IMG/VR virus record: IMGVR_UViG_3300032298_001311 | Span: 1-64,000 of that record | Source: a virus | Direction: 5' to 3' (one strand) | Length of the DNA: 64,000 nt | In this document: positions 1,119 through 59,747 of the stretch, in pieces | How positions within the stretch are numbered: the first letter of the stretch is position 1 | How the letters are laid out: every line of letters starts with the position of its first letter | Position numbers and translations under genes: made by a program | The notes under the pieces: generated by a model | The model's database searches: none | Told to the model about the DNA's origin: nothing | The model's input: only the letters and a program-made list of their open reading frames with translations

Positions 1119-1809
1119 TAGTGATTTCCTCTTGTTGTATTTCGTCGTGTGTAACAATTTTAACAACCTCTTTAATAATTGGCTGCAAAATCATTTGAGC
1201 CATTAAGAGGAATTTACTATCTCTAACATAGAAATAGTTTCCCCAGAAGTGTCTGTATTCTCGCTTAAAACTATCCAGCAAATCCTCAGAGATATGAAAC
1301 TCGTCTAAGTTTCTCTTAACAAGATTGACAAAGTTCTTTTTACCATCTGGACTGAGTTTTGATACAGAGCCTTGTAGAGCAACCTTATAACGACAACCGT
1401 GTGTGAGATGTTTCTTAACTTCTACACGACGATTAGTCTTCATAAACATAAGTGCTTCTTCACTTACTGGTTCCCAAAATTCCGCAACAACGGAATTCTT
1501 TTTGGAAATTTTCGTTAGTTCATCAAGGATAGCACGATCCTTAAAGAACAGACTAAGTCCTCTACCTTCAGTTCTTCTACGCATCTGACTTTTATCATAC
1601 TTGCCGAGGAGTTGAATTAAACCAATTACTTCATTTGGATATTGTCGTGCTGCTCTGTTTGCTGCTCCCCAATCTGTAAGATCTCCCTTTTTAATTTTAG
1701 GAATATCTTTTACATTGAAGTAATTAGCAGCATAACCCCATTCATTCCATATAACTGCCTTATACGGAAAAGAGCGGTAAAAGAGCTTGTCCGTCGTTCT
1801 GATTCTCAT
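1111..1809 (-). CDS. Hypothetical protein
   Basis: 232-aa ORF in operon with clpA. Confidence 0.65.
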   Translation of the reverse strand: MRIRTTDKLFYRSFPYKAVIWNEWGYAANYFNVKDIPKIKKGDLTDWGAANRAARQYPNEVIGLIQLLGKYDKSQMRRRTEGRGLSLFFKDRAILDELTKISKKNSVVAEFWEPVSEEALMFMKTNRRVEVKKHLTHGCRYKVALQGSVSKLSPDGKKNFVNLVKRNLDEFHISEDLLDSFKREYRHFWGNYFYVRDSKFLLMAQMILQPIIKEVVKIVTHDEIQQEEITNV

Positions 1810-4027
1810 GTGTACCTCTATAGTTTAGTTTAACATCTTTTCCTTCACAGTCAACCTCGACTATGCCACCAGACTTAAGAGATCCAAATAACATCTCACG
1901 ACTCATTGGCTTCTTAATTTCTTGGTCAATGATTCGTGCTAACGGACGAGCGCCCATCTTTGGATTAAAGCCCTTCTTAATAAGTAGAGCCATTCCGCTT
2001 TCACTAACTTCAACCTTAACATTCTTTTCACTAACAAGAGTATTAAGATCCCTAATGAACTTCTTAACAATATATTCCATACTCTCTTTGCCTAATTTAT
2101 TGAACTTGATAACCCCGTCCAATCTATTACGAAACTCTGGAGCAAAGAAACTAGTCATCGCTTCTTCGCCGTCGTTGTATCGGTCTTCAGTTGAGAAGCC
2201 AATAGTCTGACGTTCGGCATCCTTAGCACCAAGATTAGAAGTCATAATTAAAATAACATTACGACAATCAGCAACCTTACCATTTGATCCAGTGACTTGC
2301 CCATTATCCATTAGTTGGAGTAGAATGTTGCTAACATCTGGATGAGCTTTTTCAATTTCGTCAAGAAGTAGAACACAATGTGGATGTTCTTGTACTTTTG
2401 TAATCAACATGCCTGCGTTTTCTTCGTATCCGACGTAACCTGGAGGTGATCCAATCAGTTTAGCAACAGAATGCTTTTCCTGGTATTCGCTCATATCAAA
2501 GCGAATTAAGTTTACAGCAAGATTATCTGCTAGTTGCTTTGCTGTCTCGGTCTTACCGCATCCAGTTGGGCCAACAAACAAGAAACTACCAATTGGTTTA
2601 GTAGGATCTTTAAGTCCTGCACGAGCAATAAAGATCTTGTCGAGGACATCATCAATAGCCTTGTCCTGTCCAAATACTTTATGCTTCATGTTAGTTTCAA
2701 GATTGCTAAGTCCTTCACTCTCTGTTTCTGCAACAGCTTCAACAGGAAGTTTAACCATCTTGCTTAGTTCAAATTCGATACTCTTCTTTGTAACAATTCG
2801 TTCTTTAGAAGCATCAAGTTTAAATCTGGAACAAGCAAGATCGATAAGATCGATAGCCTTATCTGGCAACTTCTTGTCTGTGAGATATTTAACGGAAAGT
2901 TTAACAGCGTCCTCGATAGCAGCATCTGTAATCTCTGCCTTGTGGAATTTTTCGTAATACTTTTTAATACCTTTAATAATATCTATAGAAACTTCTGCTG
3001 TTGGCTCATCAACAGTTACTCTTTGGAATCGACGCATTAGAGCACGATCCTTTTCAAAGTGCTTGCGATATTCTTCCCAAGTAGTTGAAGCAATTACCTT
3101 AATAGCACCTTTGCTGAGAGCAGGTTTCAGCATATTAGCCATATCATTTGGATTGTTATTACTTGAACCAGCACCACTCATCATGTGAGCTTCGTCAATA
3201 AATATAATTGCTTTACCTTTACGTTCGATAGCCTTAAGGACTGCTTTGAGTCTTTCTTCAAACTCACCACGATATTTTGAACCAGCAAGCATAGCACCGA
3301 TGTCTAAGTTATAAAGTGTGTGATCCTTAATAAACTCTGGAACCTCACCATTAACAATTTCAAAAGCAAGTCCTTCTGCGATAGCAGTCTTACCAACACC
3401 TGGATCACCAACAAGAATTACATTAGCCTTGTTACGACGTCCGAGGGCAAGGATGATACTTTCAATTTCTACTTCACGACCAATAACAGGATCAATCTTA
3501 TTTTTCTGAACCTGTTGATTCATATTAGCTGTAAATTGTGAGAGAAGTTTATCGATACCATCGGATCCTATGTTTTCGTCATCAACTTGAATAGTTTCTT
3601 CTTCAACATAATCTGCAAATTTTTCTTTTGTAAAGTTTGATTTATTAAGATAATAAATTGCATAACTTTTCTTTTCAGAAAGGATACTTAAAAAAAGATC
3701 ATTTAATTCTATTCTTTGTCTACCATTAAAAAGAACTTGAGTAAAAGCACGATTTAAACATCTTTCAACTGTTTGAGTTTTTTGTGGTTTAGTCTTTCTT
3801 CCAGCACAAACAATATCTTTTAAATTATTTTTAATAAAGTGTTCTAGATTTATTTTGGTATAATTTAAATCGCCAGGATAATCATTTAGAAAAGTCAAAA
3901 ATTTATCATTAGTTATCATAGCCAAAACAAGATGTTCAAGAGTAAGATATTCGTGTTGGTGATTTACTGCAATTGCAACAGCCTTATCATACACAATCTG
4001 TAATTCTTCGCTAGGCTCTAAAATCAT
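1760..4027 (-). CDS. clpA: ATP-dependent Clp protease ATP-binding subunit ClpA
   Basis: Clp N-domain, two AAA+ modules (GDPGVGKT, GPTGCGKT), pore loop GSKYRGEFE, no ClpB middle domain, 755 aa. Confidence 0.9.
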   Translation of the reverse strand: MILEPSEELQIVYDKAVAIAVNHQHEYLTLEHLVLAMITNDKFLTFLNDYPGDLNYTKINLEHFIKNNLKDIVCAGRKTKPQKTQTVERCLNRAFTQVLFNGRQRIELNDLFLSILSEKKSYAIYYLNKSNFTKEKFADYVEEETIQVDDENIGSDGIDKLLSQFTANMNQQVQKNKIDPVIGREVEIESIILALGRRNKANVILVGDPGVGKTAIAEGLAFEIVNGEVPEFIKDHTLYNLDIGAMLAGSKYRGEFEERLKAVLKAIERKGKAIIFIDEAHMMSGAGSSNNNPNDMANMLKPALSKGAIKVIASTTWEEYRKHFEKDRALMRRFQRVTVDEPTAEVSIDIIKGIKKYYEKFHKAEITDAAIEDAVKLSVKYLTDKKLPDKAIDLIDLACSRFKLDASKERIVTKKSIEFELSKMVKLPVEAVAETESEGLSNLETNMKHKVFGQDKAIDDVLDKIFIARAGLKDPTKPIGSFLFVGPTGCGKTETAKQLADNLAVNLIRFDMSEYQEKHSVAKLIGSPPGYVGYEENAGMLITKVQEHPHCVLLLDEIEKAHPDVSNILLQLMDNGQVTGSNGKVADCRNVILIMTSNLGAKDAERQTIGFSTEDRYNDGEEAMTSFFAPEFRNRLDGVIKFNKLGKESMEYIVKKFIRDLNTLVSEKNVKVEVSESGMALLIKKGFNPKMGARPLARIIDQEIKKPMSREMLFGSLKSGGIVEVDCEGKDVKLNYRGTHENQNDGQALLPLFSV

Positions 4028-39550: not shown

Positions 39551-40339
39551 TTAGAAGCGAGCGAGTGCAGGAACAACATCACTTGTATTAAAGTGATAGT
39601 TCACACCAGCGCGAACAGTGTTGAACTTTGTACTGTTATTAACATTGTTCAACGAAGCAGGGCTATTAAATAAAGCCTTCTGGTTACCACCGCTGATATC
39701 TGTATAAAGGTATTCTGCCTTAACAGACCAAGCCGGAGCAAAAGCCCACTCGGCACCACCACCAACAGTCCAACCTGTCTGTGTAGCACTCTGGCCGCCG
39801 TATGTACCATTACTGGAAACATTACCGTAAGCAAAACCACCTGTACCATAAACAAGTAAAGTAGGCATTAGCGGAACAACACCGATTCTACCACGAACGG
39901 TACCGAACCAGTTAACATTTGTACCACCAGTGTAACCAGCAACCCAACCTGGGTAAAGTGCATTAACGGCTGCTACATTGTAAGCACCGTTTGAACCACC
40001 GGAAATTGACGAACCCTGGAAGTCAGCTTCAGCACCAACAACAGCTAATGAACCGACTTGCCAGTTGTAACCAACCTGAGCACCACCAATGATGCCAGCG
40101 TTACCGTTGCCATTGCGCTGAGTAATAACATTCTGCCAAGTAACTGGATTATAACCATAAACCTGACCATTGCCGTTGGACTTCCATCCACCGCCAACAT
40201 TAGCACCGACATAAGCACCAGTCCATGTAAAAGCTGGCGGCGGCGGAGCAACTGGAGCCTTGCGTGACGGAAGGTCGGCAGCAACAGCCGAACCAGCAAG
40301 TGCAGTAGTAGCAAACAATGTTGCGATAATCTTCTTCAT
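39551..40339 (-). CDS. Outer-membrane beta-barrel protein, Omp25/Omp31/RopB family
   Basis: Signal peptide, ADLPSRKAP...FTWTGAYVG, WSVKAEYLY, VRAGVNYHF; start MKKIIA at 40339. Confidence 0.88.
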   Translation of the reverse strand: MKKIIATLFATTALAGSAVAADLPSRKAPVAPPPPAFTWTGAYVGANVGGGWKSNGNGQVYGYNPVTWQNVITQRNGNGNAGIIGGAQVGYNWQVGSLAVVGAEADFQGSSISGGSNGAYNVAAVNALYPGWVAGYTGGTNVNWFGTVRGRIGVVPLMPTLLVYGTGGFAYGNVSSNGTYGGQSATQTGWTVGGGAEWAFAPAWSVKAEYLYTDISGGNQKALFNSPASLNNVNNSTKFNTVRAGVNYHFNTSDVVPALARF

Positions 40340-40471
40340 ATAACTTCTCCTCTGTGTTACATTGTCTACTTTAGTGTCTATAAAGGTTATGGTCAAATAT
40401 ATTTTTTAAGATTGTTTAACGATTTTTTAAGGTGTTGCTAATTTAACACATTTTTAATTTGGGAGAACATT

Positions 40472-44381: not shown

Positions 44382-44389
44382 TATTTATA
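44382..44389 (-). promoter_or_regulatory. T4-type late promoter abutting the tRNA-Ser CCA end
   Basis: TATAAATA. Confidence 0.65.
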
Positions 44390-45221: not shown

Positions 45222-45719
45222 TTATTCTTCCTTTGGAATTAAACTTTCTAACGGGGTTGGTGTAAAGTTTAACATCTCTACACAACAGTTTATATAACTC
45301 GACTCCGGTACTGAATTTTTATGGACATGTCCGTGTAAGTTATACTTTGTCTTATACAATGACGAAGTATGAACAGGAACATGCGTCAGTAGACAGTTAT
45401 ATTCCGGAAACATTCTCCACATCATAATTTTCTGGAAATTCTTATGTAAGTTTTCACACTTGCCATTATCATGATTTCCAAGGATCAAACGCTTGCGTCC
45501 TTTTAGGCGATTAAGTACTTCGTGACCTTTCCCAAAATAAACATCACCAAGATGATATACGATATCTCCATCGGAGACAACTCGATTCCAGTTTTCAACC
45601 ATTGTTTCATTCATATGCTCCACTGATTCAAACAGACGGAGGAATTCTCCGTCTGTGGTTTTGAATTTAAGGATATTCGTATGACCAAAGTGCGTATCCG
45701 AAATTACAAAGATGGTCAT
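45222..45719 (-). CDS. Calcineurin-like metallophosphoesterase
   Basis: SDTHFGH, LGD, GNHD, HGHVH. Confidence 0.88.
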   Translation of the reverse strand: MTIFVISDTHFGHTNILKFKTTDGEFLRLFESVEHMNETMVENWNRVVSDGDIVYHLGDVYFGKGHEVLNRLKGRKRLILGNHDNGKCENLHKNFQKIMMWRMFPEYNCLLTHVPVHTSSLYKTKYNLHGHVHKNSVPESSYINCCVEMLNFTPTPLESLIPKEE

Positions 45720-47536
45720 TACGACTCCCTAATTGGTTCCTTTCCATCTAGCAGATCGATTATTTCTTGTCCGCTCAATGTCTCATATAGTATAAGGCCT
45801 TGTGCAAGTTTGTCAAGTTGATCACGCTTCTCTATTAGGATTTGTTTTGCCGTTTCATATCCTTCTTGAATAAAACGACGGACTTCGTTATCGATTACCT
45901 TTTGGGTTTCTTGTGATATATGTTGTTCACGACCCATTGAATAACCGAGGAACTGTTCCTGCTGTGGCTCACTATAAGCAACTGTTCCAAGTTTATCACT
46001 AAAGCCTAATTGGGTAACCATAGCACGAGCAATTCGAGTAGCCTGTTGGATATCACCAGCAGCACCTGAACTTACCTTATCGTGTCCAAAAATTAATTCT
46101 TCAGCAACACGACCTCCCATTGCCATTGCCAACATTGCAATCAACTGTTCGTAGGTTTGACTAATCTCGTCACGTTCCGGAAGTGATTGCACCATACCTA
46201 AAGCACGACCTCTCGGTATGATTGTAGCTTTATGGATCGGTGTAGATCCTGGCATATTAAGACTTACAAGAGCATGTCCTCCTTCGTGATAAGCAGTCAT
46301 CTTTTTCTCATCATCGGTCATTAATAATGTGCGACGCTCTGCTCCCATAAGAATTTTATCACGGGCATCTTCAAATTCCTGTTTAGTAACAATTCTCTTA
46401 CTGCGACGAGCAGCAAGTAGAGCCGCCTCGTTAACAAGATTCATTAAGTCAGCACCACTAAATCCGGGTGTGCCACGAGCAACTACTTTAAGATCAACAT
46501 CTGGAGCAAGTGGAACTTTACGTGCGTGAACTTTAAGTATTTTTTCACGTCCTGTAATATCTGGATTACCTACAGTAATCTGACGATCAAATCTTCCTGG
46601 ACGAAGTAATGCAGGATCGAGAACATCAACTCTGTTAGTTGCTGCTATGATAATAATACCTTCGTTAGGTTCAAAGCCGTCCATTTCAACAAGTAAAGCA
46701 TTAAGTGTTTGTTCACGCTCATCGTTACCACCGCCTAATCCGGCACCACGATGTCTACCAACAGCATCAACTTCGTCAACAAACACAATACATGGAGCAT
46801 TTTTCTTTGCTTGTTCAAACATGTCACGAACACGACTTGCACCAACACCAACAAACATCTCAACAAAGTCTGAACCAGAAATGCTAAAAAACGGGACTCC
46901 TGCTTCACCTGCTACTGCTTTAGCAAGTAGAGTTTTACCAGTACCTGGTGGTCCAACTAATAGAACACCTCTTGGAATTTTACCACCAACAAGTTCAAAC
47001 TTGTTAGGATTCTTAAGAAAATCTACAACCTCTTGTAGGTCTTCCTTTGCTTCGTCAACACCTGCAACATCTTCAAATGTCACTGTGCCTTGCGATTCCA
47101 TAAGTTTGGCTTTTGATTTACCAAATCCCATAGCACCGCCCATGCCACCTCCTCCTCGCATACCCCTTGCTAACCAATACCATACAAGTATGAATACAAT
47201 TAAAGGTAGCAAATTTGCAGCTAATAGAGATGTCCAAGTTTCACCACCTACTGGTTTAACTGTAATTTGTACTTTTTTATCCTGTAGTTTTGTAATAAGT
47301 GTTGGGTCATTTGGGACATATGTTTGAAAAGTTCTGTTATCACTAAAATGACCCTGAACATCACTTCCACTAATCAAAACATCGTGGACACGACCTTCAC
47401 TGATTTGAACAAGAAAATCGCTAAAATTGATTTCTCTTGTACTAGGCTTACTCTCTTGATTTTGCCACATAGCAAACAGAATACCTGCCACTACAGAAAA
47501 AACAATCCAAGGTATATACTTCTTAAGGTTTTTCAT
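45719..47536 (-). CDS. ftsH: ATP-dependent zinc metalloprotease FtsH
   Basis: Two TM segments, [27 protein letters not shown]. Confidence 0.96.
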
Positions 47537-49178: not shown

Positions 49179-49190
49179 AGATTATTTATT

Positions 49191-49821: not shown

Positions 49822-49831
49822 GGTGTATTTA

Positions 49832-49860
49832 AAAGGGAGGAAACGGACGGTCCTCCCTTT
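49832..49860 (-). terminator. Intrinsic terminator after the peptidase gene
   Basis: AAAGGGAGGA / TCCTCCCTTT inverted repeat. Confidence 0.7.
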
Positions 49861-51397: not shown

Positions 51398-51415
51398 ACA
51401 TTATTTAATAGAATT

Positions 51416-51514: not shown

Positions 51515-52204
51515 TTACTTACGATCTCCGAAGAGCATAAGCAGATTTATAAACATGTTGATAAAGTTCATATAAAGTTGTAATGCTCCGTAAATACCAA
51601 GCATTTCTCTTTCACCTTCATAAGAACGATCGTACATGTCCTTTAACATCTGAACATCATAAGCAGTAAGACCTGCGAAAAGTAATACTGCGATAAGACT
51701 TGTAGCAGTAGCAATAACTGTGCTCTGAACAAATAAATTAATAAGACCAGTTATAATCAGCCCCATCAATCCCATAAACAAGAATGATCCAAACTGTGTT
51801 AGATCACGCTTCGTTGTATATCCATACAGGCTAACTGCTCCAAACATAGCACTTGTTCCAAAGAAAAGTGTAAAGATACTACCCATCTTAAACAGAGCAA
51901 AGATAAATGCTAAACTTATACCTGTTGCTGCTGAATAAACATAGAACCAAGTTCTTGCCTGCGCTGGAGTCATTGATCTAATAGCCCAAGACAAGTACAT
52001 AACAATTCCTAATGGTGCTAACATCACTAACCATTTTTGTGGACCACCGAAGAACATTCCTAATAGTTCTGGACTTGTGCCAACAATAAATGATAGCACA
52101 CTACTAATGGCGAGACCTATCGCCATATTATTAAAGATACTGAGCATATACTGTCTCAGCCCTTCGTTATAAGAAATACCTACAGTATTATAACCGGATC
52201 TCAT
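51515..52204 (-). CDS. Bax inhibitor-1/YccA family membrane protein
   Basis: About seven TM helices, GYTTKRDLT, ALQLYMNFINMF. Confidence 0.9.
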   Translation of the reverse strand: MRSGYNTVGISYNEGLRQYMLSIFNNMAIGLAISSVLSFIVGTSPELLGMFFGGPQKWLVMLAPLGIVMYLSWAIRSMTPAQARTWFYVYSAATGISLAFIFALFKMGSIFTLFFGTSAMFGAVSLYGYTTKRDLTQFGSFLFMGLMGLIITGLINLFVQSTVIATATSLIAVLLFAGLTAYDVQMLKDMYDRSYEGEREMLGIYGALQLYMNFINMFINLLMLFGDRK

Positions 52205-53858: not shown

Positions 53859-53878
53859 GAGATATTTATAAACGAAAA

Positions 53879-55646: not shown

Positions 55647-55736
55647 TGGCGGAAGGAGTGGGATTCGAACCCACGGTAGCATCTCTGCTACGCCCATTTA
55701 GCAAACGGGTGCTTTCGGCCTCTCAGCCATCCTTCC
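55647..55736 (-). tRNA. tRNA-Ser(GCT)
   Basis: Long variable arm, loop TTGCTAA, CCA. Confidence 0.95.
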
Positions 55737-55745
55737 ATACTGTAA

Positions 55746-55774
55746 ATTATATATGCTTCACTGGACTATGTCAA
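55746..55774 (-). promoter_or_regulatory. Sigma70-like promoter upstream of tRNA-Ser(GCT)
   Basis: TTGACA-17 nt-TATAAT. Confidence 0.7.
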
Positions 55775-55805
55775 GAAGAAAGCCGCCCGTATTACACGAG
55801 CGGCT
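55773..55805 (-). terminator. Intrinsic terminator after pmoC
   Basis: AGCCGCTCGT/ACGGGCGGCT stem followed by TTCTTCTT. Confidence 0.75.
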
Positions 55806-55831
55806 CTTGGGAGGATTTAATCTCTACTGAA

Positions 55832-56599
55832 TTAATCAGCGAGGAGGGCGACGCCGTCCTTACCAACTAGAGCATGTACTCTTCCGAGGATCTGTAGAAC
55901 AACACCAAATACACCTAGTGCCATCCAACCAAAGAACACAAAGCCCCAATGTAGAGGTGCTACGAAGAGCTCTTCCATAAACCAGAATGTATGACCCCAC
56001 TCATTGAGACCAACATTTGGAATAATCATGAACGGACCAATAGCAACGATCAAGAATGCTAGTGAATAGCCCTGAGCGAAGTATGGGATACGTGTTCTTG
56101 CGTAGAAGAACGCACCAACAGCAATAACGCTGTAGATTGGGTAGCTCATGTAGAACTCAATGATGTGACTTGGAGTGAAGTCAGTATCACGAATAACTGT
56201 CATGTGCCAAGTTCCGTCCTGCTCTGTAAAGAACGAAGCACCCCAGTAAATAGCAACACCGTAAACTACGAGCCACTGTACAAGGGTTACAAGGCGACGC
56301 ATTTCTTCACGAGGAGTTACGTTAGCTAGATCGCGATCGCGAGTCTTCCAAAGATAACCAGCAAGTCCTAGTCCAGAAACTAGTTCTAGTGGAATCTCTG
56401 TCCAAAGGATTGACATCCAATATGTCTGGAACTCTGGAGCAAATGAATCTAGTCCAGCTCTCCATCCGAAGACCTGCTCATAGATACGTACAATTAGATA
56501 GAAAACATTTAAACATGCTAGTCCGATCCACATACCACGTAGATCAACAACCTGTGCGTCTGTGTCCGCAAGTGCGGTAGTCTTAGTAAGTGTTGCCAT
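55832..56599 (-). CDS. pmoC: Particulate methane monooxygenase subunit C
   Basis: DSFAPEFQTYW, EQDGTWH...DTDFTPSH, NEWGHTFWFMEELFVAPLHWGFV; N-terminal part (VDLRGMWIGL...PLELVSGLGLAGYLWKTRDR) of Methylocystis/Methylosinus type. Confidence 0.97.
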   Translation of the reverse strand: MATLTKTTALADTDAQVVDLRGMWIGLACLNVFYLIVRIYEQVFGWRAGLDSFAPEFQTYWMSILWTEIPLELVSGLGLAGYLWKTRDRDLANVTPREEMRRLVTLVQWLVVYGVAIYWGASFFTEQDGTWHMTVIRDTDFTPSHIIEFYMSYPIYSVIAVGAFFYARTRIPYFAQGYSLAFLIVAIGPFMIIPNVGLNEWGHTFWFMEELFVAPLHWGFVFFGWMALGVFGVVLQILGRVHALVGKDGVALLAD

Positions 56600-56754
56600 T
56601 TCTTATCTCCTATAAAGTTAGGCATTTTTATTGAGCATCACTGAAATCTTACGGTTCACCACCTCCCGATGTAGTGATGCTCCGTTTACACACGTTATAT
56701 GAGTTGTTTTACTTGCACACCTCCCCGGTTAAAGTATCACTTTACTCTGACAAG

Positions 56755-56762
56755 TATTTATA
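56755..56762 (-). promoter_or_regulatory. T4-type late promoter upstream of pmoC
   Basis: Exact TATAAATA about 155 nt before the ATG. Confidence 0.65.
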
Positions 56763-56959
56763 ATCTTGTCTTATAACTGTATATATTTTTAGTATAAATG
56801 AAAGTATTTGTCAAGGAAGAAATTGGTTTTTTAATTGTCCAAAGAGCCAGAAAGGCAAGCTCACAACCGTGGTAATAATAAAAATAACAGACATAACAGC
56901 TAGATAGCCGGCGAAAATAGCAAATCTTGGAATTTGTAAAAGAGATCCGGTTAATGTTC

Positions 56960-57529
56960 TCATGTGTTTATCTCTATGTCTACAGCAACAATAAATCTGT
57001 TCTGTTTGCTCTGTACGATTCCCGGTCGATGCCAATGCTGACTTGGATATATATGCCAAGTTTTTCTATGTGGCCTTACGAAAAACCGCTCAGGATTATT
57101 TACCCCATTAGGAGCAAACTCTGTACCGGCATGATCTAGATCAAGAACATCATCTGGAATATGAACATAATAAACGCCGCTTATTTTCCTTTTACTAGTA
57201 TCTGGAAGATGATTATGCCATAAATTATCGCGATCCTCTGCTCCGTCTAAATTTGTCATAAAAGACCATGCATTCATGTTAGATACGCGAACTTCACTGC
57301 CAAGATAAAGGAACACTGAAGTAAGAAAGCTCATCCTGTATTTGAGCCAAATAGGTTCAGGACGAGCAAAAATATTTTCTTTAGTTTGAAATTTTGGGCT
57401 GTTTATGAAATAGTTTCCGGACTCGATAATTCCTTTTACTATTTCACAAACATTTTGATCATCTTGATCAGAAATTAAACTGCTATAATCAAAAGTTTTA
57501 CAAATAGCATTTTGATCTATAACAGTCAT
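56960..57529 (-). CDS. 2OG-Fe(II) oxygenase-like protein
   Basis: WHNH...SGVYYV...GTEF...YPSQHWH. Confidence 0.7.
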   Translation of the reverse strand: MTVIDQNAICKTFDYSSLISDQDDQNVCEIVKGIIESGNYFINSPKFQTKENIFARPEPIWLKYRMSFLTSVFLYLGSEVRVSNMNAWSFMTNLDGAEDRDNLWHNHLPDTSKRKISGVYYVHIPDDVLDLDHAGTEFAPNGVNNPERFFVRPHRKTWHIYPSQHWHRPGIVQSKQNRFIVAVDIEINT

Positions 57530-57539
57530 TTAAATCCTT

Positions 57540-57614
57540 TGGAGCGGGTGACTGGATTCGAACCAGCGACGAACAGCTTGGAAGGCTGACACTCTACCCC
57601 TGAGTTACACCCGC
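57540..57614 (-). tRNA. tRNA-Gly(TCC)
   Basis: Loop CTTCCAA, CCA. Confidence 0.95.
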
Positions 57615-57635
57615 ATAATATAGAACTATTTATTA

Positions 57636-59747
57636 TTACCAATTTCCTTCATTACAATAATGATATTTGAAAGAAAAATCAATAGTTTTATTGAAGATCT
57701 TTTCTTCATTCATTAAGAATGCAAATTCTTGTTCTGTTCTACCATTTTCTAAATCATATTTTGGTTTTGCAAGTTTTCTTGCTCTTATAGCAGTATTACT
57801 TTTAATTCTTGTGTAATCTTGTGCATAGAATGGTCCTCTACGATGATCTCTTCTATTGTCAAAAGGATTTTCGATTTGATTTAATGTTACATCAAAATCT
57901 GCAAACCATTTACCATTATCGTCGATTATAAATTTATAAATTGCATTAAGCATACCTGGATCATATTGATTACCAAACTCTTTTAGATCAATATCTGGAT
58001 TATATTTGATTTCAATTTCAAAGGCCCCTCTCGTTTTCCAAAGGATTCTTAATAGCGGCCATACTTCATTCATTAATGAATCAGCAAATGAATTTATATT
58101 TGGTTTAATGATATTATAATCAAAATTTTCAAATTCTATTTCATTAATAATACTAGGATTGTTAAATTTTATTTTATAATGAGATCTTGCTAATTCTGTT
58201 CTAGGGGGGTATGAAATTGGTTTTTCTGTACAGTCTTTCATTATATCTAAAAATATATGTGCTGTTTTTAAACGGACCATAACATGAGTTCCGCCCATAG
58301 AAAAATCTTTTGTAATCCAATGTCCTTGATAAAAGTGATCGGAAATATTGAATCTATTTAAATTTTGTCCAACTATGGCTTCGGAACTCAACCCAAATCC
58401 ACCCCCTATTCCAATATTATTCATATTAAGATTTCTTAATCTCCACAGTAATGTTAAAGTATCCGCAAAGTCTTGATATTTTTCTGTAGGAAATCCTACA
58501 ATCCAATTAGTTGCATTAAATATACCAACTTCTTTACCGTCTTTGAAATTTTGTTCTATTTCTGAAATTTTAACTTTTTTATCCATATCGTCTAAAACTT
58601 TTTGACTGCCAGATTCAACACCATAATTTAACATAATGCATCCGCCAGCTTTAAGATCTTTAAAATAATCTAAATCCATTCGTCCGTCACAACGGGCATA
58701 TCCAGTCCAATTTATGTTCAATCCTTTAGTCTGAACAGCTTTACAAAAAGCTCTCAATTCATTAATATTACCATTCACTAAACTATCTATAAACCAGATA
58801 ACATCAGTTCCTTTGTTATAATATAACCATTCGATTTCAGTAATTAAATCTACAGAACTTCGTTGTCTATATTTCCAAAAGTGTGTCTCTTCACAAAATG
58901 TACATTTTGCAATACATCCTCTACTGATTTCTGTATTAACACCGTTAGGAATACTGTAATCACTAAAATTAATACTTTCATAATCGGGCATGGGAAACCC
59001 ATTAAGATTTAATCTTTGATCTTCTGGCTGTGTTATATATTGTGTGGTATCATGCACGATACCATTTTCAATTTCATCTAATATTTGTAATAAAGCATAT
59101 TCACCCTCGCCGTTCACAACATAGTCATAATACGGATGTCGTTCAAACCAAGATTTTTGTACATTACTACCACCAACTAATATTTTAATGTTTGGAAGTT
59201 TTTTCTTTAATTCTCGACACATCCATTTTGTAGGTTCTTCATTTACATCATAAACTGTGAACCCTACTGCTTGAGGATTGAATTCTATAATTTTATCAAT
59301 TGCTTCTTGTAAAATATTATCTAGATAAGGATGAACATCTTCTAAATATCTTCCTTCTCTCCATTTCCAATGTACACTCGGGTCCCATAAACTTGTATTA
59401 TGATTGTACAAATACCCTGACTCTTTTTGAAACTGATTATAGGCCTTAACATTTAAATCTAATATATGAGTTTCATATCCTGCTGTTTTTGCAACACCAC
59501 TTAGTCTTGCTAAATTAAAAGGGGGGAATTGTGCAGCCCATTGAGGACATAAAACTAATGCTAATTTTGTATTTCTTTTTTTATAATTTATATAAACCGG
59601 AGTAACATTTTTTTGGTCAACTTTTTTAGCATAGGGAGCAATAGCAGCTAACATACTCATGTGTCGGTCATTAGCTGTATTTTCCGAAGGTTTTTCTTTT
59701 AATTCTACATTTCTTTTAGCTAAACTACTTAAATTGAAATCTACCAA
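57636..59747 (-). CDS. Cobalamin-binding radical SAM enzyme
   Basis: B12-binding domain (VGFTVY...VGG...GEGE), SRGCIAKCTFC, GVESGSQKVL..M.K. Confidence 0.88.
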   Translation of the reverse strand: MVDFNLSSLAKRNVELKEKPSENTANDRHMSMLAAIAPYAKKVDQKNVTPVYINYKKRNTKLALVLCPQWAAQFPPFNLARLSGVAKTAGYETHILDLNVKAYNQFQKESGYLYNHNTSLWDPSVHWKWREGRYLEDVHPYLDNILQEAIDKIIEFNPQAVGFTVYDVNEEPTKWMCRELKKKLPNIKILVGGSNVQKSWFERHPYYDYVVNGEGEYALLQILDEIENGIVHDTTQYITQPEDQRLNLNGFPMPDYESINFSDYSIPNGVNTEISRGCIAKCTFCEETHFWKYRQRSSVDLITEIEWLYYNKGTDVIWFIDSLVNGNINELRAFCKAVQTKGLNINWTGYARCDGRMDLDYFKDLKAGGCIMLNYGVESGSQKVLDDMDKKVKISEIEQNFKDGKEVGIFNATNWIVGFPTEKYQDFADTLTLLWRLRNLNMNNIGIGGGFGLSSEAIVGQNLNRFNISDHFYQGHWITKDFSMGGTHVMVRLKTAHIFLDIMKDCTEKPISYPPRTELARSHYKIKFNNPSIINEIEFENFDYNIIKPNINSFADSLMNEVWPLLRILWKTRGAFEIEIKYNPDIDLKEFGNQYDPGMLNAIYKFIIDDNGKWFADFDVTLNQIENPFDNRRDHRRGPFYAQDYTRIKSNTAIRARKLAKPKYDLENGRTEQEFAFLMNEEKIFNKTIDFSFKYHYCNEGNW

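Follow-up and report, generated by a model that had tools for sequence, protein, structure and literature searches.

An intact stand-alone pmoC gene in a putative jumbo phage of type II methanotrophs lies behind tandem sigma-70-type and T4-type late promoter motifs

Phages that carry pmoC, the gene for one of the subunits that make up particulate methane monooxygenase (pMMO), have been known since 2020. The freshwater pmoC-phages described by Chen et al. (2020, PMC7674155) have large, AT-rich and tRNA-rich genomes and a stand-alone pmoC, whose product is more than 90% identical in amino acids to methanotroph PmoC and keeps an Asp/His/His site. In Lake Rotsee, phage pmoC was co-expressed late with structural genes, and the idea of late pmoC expression is itself not new (Chen et al., 2020, PMC7674155). 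One member of that collection, Crystal_Bog_pmoC-phage_1, has a genome of 352 kb with 35% GC and 23 tRNAs, an alpha-type pmoC, and Methylocystis as predicted host (Chen et al., 2020). Here we report on the pmoC gene of IMG/VR record IMGVR_UViG_3300032298_001311 (128,772 bp, G000 below), whose first 64 kb (64,000 nucleotides) are called the window; positions refer to the window unless preceded by G000. The phage resembles Crystal_Bog_pmoC-phage_1 in estimated size (~358 kb) and GC content (35%). It is an ordinary member of the known group, to which it makes a modest regulatory addition, a pair of promoters in front of the gene; promoters, terminators and FtsH are not discussed in the 2020 work, and the tandem arrangement and the link with ftsH are what is added here.

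Three further systems serve for comparison. Late promoters of phage T4 have the sequence TATAAATA and are read by polymerase with gp55, gp33 and the gp45 clamp; some T4 genes have an early and a late promoter in tandem. In cyanophages, psbA, which encodes D1, is an auxiliary metabolic gene, and D1 repair in the host relies on FtsH as its protease. Finally, in Methylocystis SC2 an ftsH gene was noted next to an orphan pmoC (Dam et al., 2013, PMC3794950), and a membrane quality-control or sensor role has been proposed for that pmoC.

The CheckV completeness of the record is 36%, which places the whole genome at roughly 350 kb (128,772 / 0.36 = ~358 kb). The record has 35% GC throughout, about 160 open reading frames (ORFs), almost all of them on one strand, 20 tRNAs and a permuted, two-piece tmRNA, and it encodes baseplate, tail-fibre and other virion proteins; the phage origin of the DNA that bears pmoC is supported by these virion genes, by the tRNAs and by the uniform GC content. 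A nucleotide search with 8 kb around pmoC against GenBank phages returned tRNA matches only. As a whole, we consider it likely that the record is a fragment (about 36%) of a tRNA-rich jumbo phage of roughly 350 kb infecting Methylocystaceae (type II) methanotrophs, and that its pmoC is part of a self-contained auxiliary metabolic gene cassette composed of a sigma-70-type promoter (P1), a T4-type late-promoter motif (P2, TATAAATA), a structured leader, the Shine-Dalgarno sequence AGGAG, pmoC, and a terminator (Table 1).

The gene is intact and both of its copper sites are kept. Its product matches the Pfam family PF04896 (AmoC) with 363.7 bits (cut-off 26.7) over profile positions 5-244 of 245, and residues 4-254 align with the solved chains 3rfr_C (from Methylocystis sp. 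M) and 4phz_K and 7s4m_G (both from Methylocystis sp. Rockwell) at about 93-95% identity, with one 1-residue gap in the N-terminal tail. Bit scores against structures were 480-519 for Methylocystis and Methylosinus PmoC, 337-345 for gammaproteobacterial PmoC, and 213-220 for AmoC. DGTWH is found at residue 128 and is followed by His145, NEWGH at residue 199 and is followed by His217. In a gapless alignment to M. capsulatus PmoC (1yew_C, offset +28), D128/H132/H145 correspond to Asp156/His160/His173, the CuC ligands, and N199/H203/H217 to Asn227/His231/His245, which we take to be the CuD site of the 2022 cryo-EM work, so that all six ligands are present. The first-pass annotation, made from the sequence alone, had described a full-length PmoC with these two motifs, and this was borne out. 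Among published phage copies, several are interrupted or truncated; the window pmoC is neither.

That annotation had also seen no pmoA or pmoB nearby. No match to PF02461 (PmoA) or PF04744 (PmoB) was found in the 128,772 bp of the record, the PmoB result being a weak negative since this model is silent in control genomes as well, and no pmoA was found in the flanks of related phage pmoC loci, against 46 of 80 bacterial loci with pmoA downstream. From the complete relatives we infer that pmoA and pmoB are absent from the whole phage, of which the record covers about 36%. The window gene is thus a stand-alone, intact phage pmoC of the published kind (Chen et al., 2020), as had been proposed.

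The base composition of pmoC has been recoded to that of the phage: it has 45.6% GC and 39% GC at third codon positions (GC3), within the GC3 range of phage pmoC copies (26-47%), against 55-63% GC and 73-91% GC3 in every one of the 80 bacterial pmoC genes retrieved. At the nucleotide level it is only 75-76% identical to the bacterial genes with which it was compared, and synonymous sites are saturated. An independent phage contig of 77.7 kb from another sample (L016), diverged in sequence, carries a pmoC whose product is 94% identical in amino acids to the window PmoC, between the same neighbours: a 2-oxoglutarate (2OG)-Fe(II) oxygenase gene (66%) on one side and a tRNA-Ser / lytic-transglycosylase unit (84%) on the other. 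It follows from this synteny that the common ancestor of the two phages already had pmoC in this place. The ratio of nonsynonymous to synonymous substitution rates (dN/dS) between the two genes is 0.065 at dS 0.68, and it is 0.02-0.08 against the more distant phage copies compared, values that indicate strong purifying selection on pmoC inside phages.

The cassette is bounded on both sides. P1 lies 46 nt upstream of TATAAATA, with a 23-nt spacer from its end to P2; its hexamers are kept in L016, where the spacer between them has diverged, and 24 sites of the P1 type occur in the record. P2, which the first-pass annotation had correctly placed upstream of pmoC, lies on the coding strand, 155 nt from the gene. 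It has no usable -35 element (the hexamer at 17 nt matches TTGACA at 3 of 6 positions) and no TG extension, is bracketed by the inverted repeat GACAAG / CTTGTC (56749-56754 and 56765-56770), and is centred in a 41-nt block that is identical in L016. The leader contains a perfect 10-bp hairpin (56633-56642 / 56673-56682; fold z = -2.6) and two CGGG(G)AGGTG repeats; its hairpin part is an insertion relative to L016 and is found in the window phage only. No Rfam family matched in the leader, and blastn of the leader against the 450 nt upstream of bacterial pmoC genes showed no similarity. The latter result argues that the leader was not transferred together with the gene, and the two together argue that the control region was built in the phage. 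At the other end, the predicted terminator (-23 kcal/mol, z = -3.3), missed by a simple scanner, confirms that the gene has a terminator of its own. The -35 element of the next promoter, that of the tRNA-Ser unit, overlaps the U-rich tail of this terminator, and this compact junction forms the 3' boundary of the cassette. An 82-aa ORF at 56811-57059, which overlaps P1, was rejected as spurious; it matched no family, and part of it coincides with the 3' end of the 2OG-oxygenase gene.

Table 1. Features of the pmoC cassette and related elements (window positions, except for the tmRNA)
Feature	Position	Strand	Basis
P1, sigma-70-type promoter, TTGACA, 17 nt, TAAAAA(T)	56786..56814	-	10/12 scanner matches, conservation in L016
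P2, T4-type late-promoter motif TATAAATA	56755..56762	-	motif search, conservation in L016
5' leader, 155 nt	56600..56754	-	fold, alignment to L016
Shine-Dalgarno AGGAG, 7 nt before ATG	56607..56611	-	read from sequence
pmoC coding sequence, 255 aa, intact	55832..56599	-	ORF, Pfam, structure alignment
pmoC intrinsic terminator, 13-bp G+C-rich stem (55807-55779) and UUUCUUCUU	55771..55807	-	fold
Perfect TTGACA-17-TATAAT promoter of next unit (tRNA-Ser, 55647-55736)	55746..55774	-	promoter scan
ftsH, complete (FtsH_ext, AAA and peptidase M41 domains)	45719..47536	-	domain matches
Permuted tmRNA, tag ANDNFVASEIALAA	G000 77836-78239 (L175:13837-14240)	-	ARAGORN

In the window alone, a whole-window shuffle gave 7 copies of TATAAATA found against 14.7 expected. 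To read this as a motif no more frequent than chance is misleading once location and strand are considered. Across the record, 12 of the 13 copies lie on the coding strand and 10 are intergenic, all of them in sense orientation, in the 8.4% of the sequence that is intergenic; a first-order Markov model of intergenic DNA predicts 1.8 copies, and none was found antisense. The shorter core TAAATA behaves likewise, with 44 intergenic sense copies against 7 antisense (15.9 +/- 3.5 expected), and the 117.6 kb of coding sequence hold only 36 in sense orientation. Most often the motif takes the form (G/T)ATAAATA, located 18-30 nt before the start codon, with GATAAATA the most frequent variant. Behind it lie, among others, the genes for a 1625-aa baseplate/virion protein and a baseplate-tail-fibre connector, the operon that includes the gene for a 2346-aa tail fibre, the gene for a fibre-like virion protein of 511 aa, and three more genes with "virion structural" matches. 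As judged from its distribution, nATAAATA is a strand-specific intergenic promoter class heading virion genes, as T4-type late promoters would be. Another class of promoter, TTGAC-N16-18-TAnnn(T/A), likewise shows a strong strand bias, with 14 sense copies and one antisense (2.1 expected), and heads tRNA units among others.

Two side observations concern these motifs. A fused TTGACT-17-TATAAATA promoter (G000 78244-78214) abuts the tmRNA called by ARAGORN and overlaps its 5' end. In at least 11 genes nnTAAATA stands no more than 4-8 nt ahead of the predicted ATG, in six of them at exactly 4 nt (window 44382-44389, 49183-49190, 49826-49833, 51402-51409 and 53863-53870; G000 81832, 93170, 100720, 104661 and 109249), several directly after the 3' end of a tRNA. 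These would give leaderless mRNAs if the motif is a late promoter there; otherwise the starts would be mis-set or the motif would have a second role.

To compare the region across phages, 78 loci of phage pmoC, each with 250 nt or more of upstream sequence, were grouped into 36 clusters of distinct upstream sequence. An exact sense-strand TATAAATA was present in 24 of the 36, at -65 to -163 (elsewhere in these loci the background is 0.015 per 250 nt), and in 0 of 78 bacterial pmoC loci within 400 nt upstream. The presence of the motif before pmoC in two thirds of the phage lineages and in none of the bacterial loci examined gives the late expression observed in metatranscriptomes a foundation at the level of sequence. 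Its surroundings take several forms. In 13 clusters it is fused to TTGAC[AT], located exactly 17 nt before it. Four gamma-type clusters show a tandem form, in which the motif comes 4-5 nt (L060, L065, L069), 29 nt (L075) or ~44 nt (L077) after a complete TTGAC[AT]-TATAAT promoter, and the window phage also has a tandem arrangement. In 17 of the 24 motif-bearing lineages a sigma-70-like promoter of the TTGAC[AT] type either is fused with TATAAATA or comes before it. In some lineages (L071-L074, L079) it comes right after a terminator hairpin, without any -35 element.

In alpha-type pmoC-phages that are T4-like, TATAAATA is followed by a common, conserved leader some 80 nt upstream of pmoC (L004, L005, L007, L011, L017, L022, L039, L048 and others), made of AAGAGTGGCGG, a variable loop and GACCACTTGAT, a hairpin whose loop differs from lineage to lineage. 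A third upstream class is without TATAAATA and has GATTGTCTA repeats and a (T/C)TGACT box followed about 22 nt later by TGTCATAAT or TCATACT (L006, L008, L009, L012, L015, L019, L044, L052, L054); G003 and G004, in this class, encode gp55.

The host can be approached from three sides. When 112 PmoC sequences were placed in a maximum-likelihood tree, the window PmoC fell inside an alpha-type phage clade of 19 rows (support by the Shimodaira-Hasegawa-like approximate likelihood-ratio test, SH-aLRT, 89), which is sister to the Methylocystis/Methylosinus PmoC clade (93), with the gamma-type phage copies as outgroup. It is placed within the alphaproteobacterial PmoC clade (SH-aLRT 100) and not with AmoC. 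The FtsH encoded by the phage is 74-79% identical to FtsH paralogues in five Methylocystis, Methylosinus and Methylocapsa genomes and no more than 66% identical to any FtsH in a sample of about 120 other genomes of Alphaproteobacteria (121 genomes in all; the limit of 66% also holds without the unpublished G054, at 62% identity). Permuted tmRNAs are typical of Alphaproteobacteria. Because the PmoC tree, the FtsH identity and the permuted tmRNA agree, a type II (Methylocystaceae) host is supported, as the first-pass annotation had supposed.

The FtsH of the phage also connects it to the orphan pmoC loci of Methylocystaceae, since this protein is the closest relative of the FtsH paralogue that adjoins them. 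In 13 of the 80 Methylocystaceae loci fetched, ftsH is directly upstream of the orphan pmoC, and in 16 it lies within the 2.5-kb flanks. In twelve related phage loci, ftsH is found on the downstream side of pmoC, within about 1.3-2.8 kb. The likeness to the Methylocystis orphan pmoC (PMC3794950) extends to a single pmoC without pmoA or pmoB, whose product is 84-93% identical to that of the phage, and to a directly upstream host FtsH paralogue that is 75-83% identical to phage FtsH. The two differ in that the host genes have a GC3 of 73-91% and upstream regions of their own, dissimilar to the phage leader, and in that the host ftsH stands beside pmoC, whereas in the window phage ftsH lies 8.3 kb downstream. 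FtsH is a possible functional partner of PmoC in the phage, and its co-carriage suggests that turnover of PmoC may be the reason for carrying pmoC alone. The window also contains a Bax1-I / YccA-family membrane protein (PF01027, E = 7e-49; 51515-52204, minus strand). YccA modulates FtsH in E. coli, and the phage protein may belong with the phage FtsH.

Several readings of the locus have to be weighed against the cassette proposed above. It is most improbable that a host pmoC was joined to phage DNA by mis-assembly or mis-binning, or that it lies in a prophage's host flank. Breaks in assemblies at pmoC are frequent, host copies being similar (Chen et al., 2020), IMG/VR classes the record as provirus, which could fit a host-flank origin, and the gene has a higher GC content than its flanks (33.8%). 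Recent host DNA is nevertheless excluded by the GC3 and by the distance to bacterial pmoC genes, phage-like sequence flanks the gene on either side, promoters and leader are of phage type with no counterpart upstream of bacterial pmoC, and the same gene order is found in diverged sequence in L016; together with the low dN/dS, base composition, nucleotide divergence and synteny led us to reject such an origin. The provirus label counts against the jumbo-phage reading; it may be a trimming artefact from host-like genes. The uniform 35% GC, the single-strand layout and the jumbo-phage genes are unlike a prophage in a Methylocystis genome of more than 60% GC. The late promoter, for its part, faces further difficulties, all of which weigh against it. 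The gp55 family, phrog_234, identified with T4 gp55, was found neither on the record (36% complete) nor on the L016 contig, nor on five other fragments that share a virion protein with the window phage, all less than 50% complete. The pmoC leader, at 155 nt, is far longer than the 18-30 nt that separate virion genes from the same motif. Twelve of the 36 phage lineages are without TATAAATA, and in most T4-like relatives the motif stands exactly 17 nt after TTGACT and could be a sigma-70 -10 element. On the other hand, phrog_234 is present in the complete T4-like pmoC-phages G002-G004 (E ~1e-55) and, as partial matches, in a 372-kb phage (G005, E = 2.6e-26) and a 259-kb phage (G006, 5.9e-19); the window phage has a virion protein in common with these two (52-54% identity), which the T4-like G002 is without. 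We regard it as unlikely that pmoC is read only by the host sigma-70 holoenzyme, early or constitutively, with TATAAATA as a -10-like element or an AT-rich by-product. This reading gains from the conserved P1, from the 13 relatives with the fused form and from the missing late sigma gene. It fits poorly with a window motif devoid of -35 element and TG extension, and with an octamer that is retained entire in 24 of 36 lineages although its TATAAA does not end in the T that is critical in a sigma-70 -10 hexamer. It also fits poorly with the copies that follow a terminator hairpin or that lie past a complete promoter as a separate second signal, and with the presence of the same motif class before virion genes in the window phage. 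The likeness to T4 late promoters covers the exact octamer, the dispensable -35, the strand-specific intergenic location, the position before virion genes and the early-plus-late tandem, and the differences are the factor not seen on the fragment, only partially matched in G005 and G006, and the prevalence of GATAAATA. Of the late-promoter control put forward in the first-pass annotation, the signal itself stands; exclusively late control does not, in view of P1, and the late sigma gene was not found on the fragment. Since a conserved sigma-70-type promoter lies upstream of TATAAATA, expression is probably not late-only, and expression through the whole infection, late phase included, probably fits the sequence better.

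In the cassette reading, then, P1 would be read from early on by host RNA polymerase with sigma-70, and P2 would be read late by a polymerase redirected by a gp55-like phage sigma, so that PmoC production would extend over the entire infection, also over its late phase, with host transcription shut down. Phage PmoC would enter the host PmoA/PmoB/PmoC complex or replace damaged PmoC, and methane oxidation and energy supply would be sustained until lysis, by analogy with cyanophage psbA. The most likely function is the published one, that phage PmoC enters or refreshes the host pMMO and that continued methane oxidation thereby powers phage production. With psbA the gene would share the encoding of a single membrane subunit of a host energy-harvesting enzyme, recoding by the phage and purifying selection; the likeness is functional only. 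That phage PmoC instead serves another purpose, as a membrane quality-control or sensor module together with FtsH, as proposed for the orphan pmoC of Methylocystis SC2, in altered pMMO or metal use, or in interference with pMMO, seems to us unlikely. The ftsH genes directly upstream of orphan pmoC in Methylocystaceae, the matching ftsH of the window phage and those of the 12 related loci, as well as the Bax1-I/YccA-like protein, speak for it. Against it, the six kept copper ligands and the dN/dS of 0.02-0.08 speak for conservation of the full catalytic-site architecture, beyond the mere fold; such a purpose is compatible with the role as replacement subunit and not opposed to it.

A broader proposal is that the pmoC cassettes of unrelated phage lineages (T4-like, ~165 kb, and jumbo, ~350 kb, with alpha- and gamma-type hosts) have converged on host-type plus TATAAATA promoters and, together with the pmoC-linked FtsH and the YccA-like protein that the window phage carries as well, would run a repair cycle of pMMO. 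Taken jointly, we hold this to be doubtful. If true, damaged PmoC would be extracted and fresh PmoC inserted, as a counterpart of psbA/FtsH repair of photosystem II, and PmoC would be the labile subunit of pMMO. As pMMO is the main biological methane sink, phage genes that sustain it could shift lake methane fluxes, a point made in 2020; what is added here is a regulatory picture of two promoters, a structured leader and a terminator.

A few observations on gene content complete the description. The profile for pqqA (PF08042) gave no match in the record, which is weak evidence of absence, as this 19-position model is silent in control genomes too. Relative to L016, the window phage has an insertion at 57540-59747 (minus strand), between the 2OG oxygenase and the upstream genes, with a B12-binding radical-SAM gene (703 aa) and a tRNA-Gly; in L016, about 900 additional bases stand immediately downstream of pmoC. 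Two further genes on the minus strand of the window are candidates for host derivation: one for a ClpA/ClpB-type double-AAA chaperone (1760-4027), and one for an outer-membrane beta-barrel protein (39551-40396), with a raised GC content of 46.7%.

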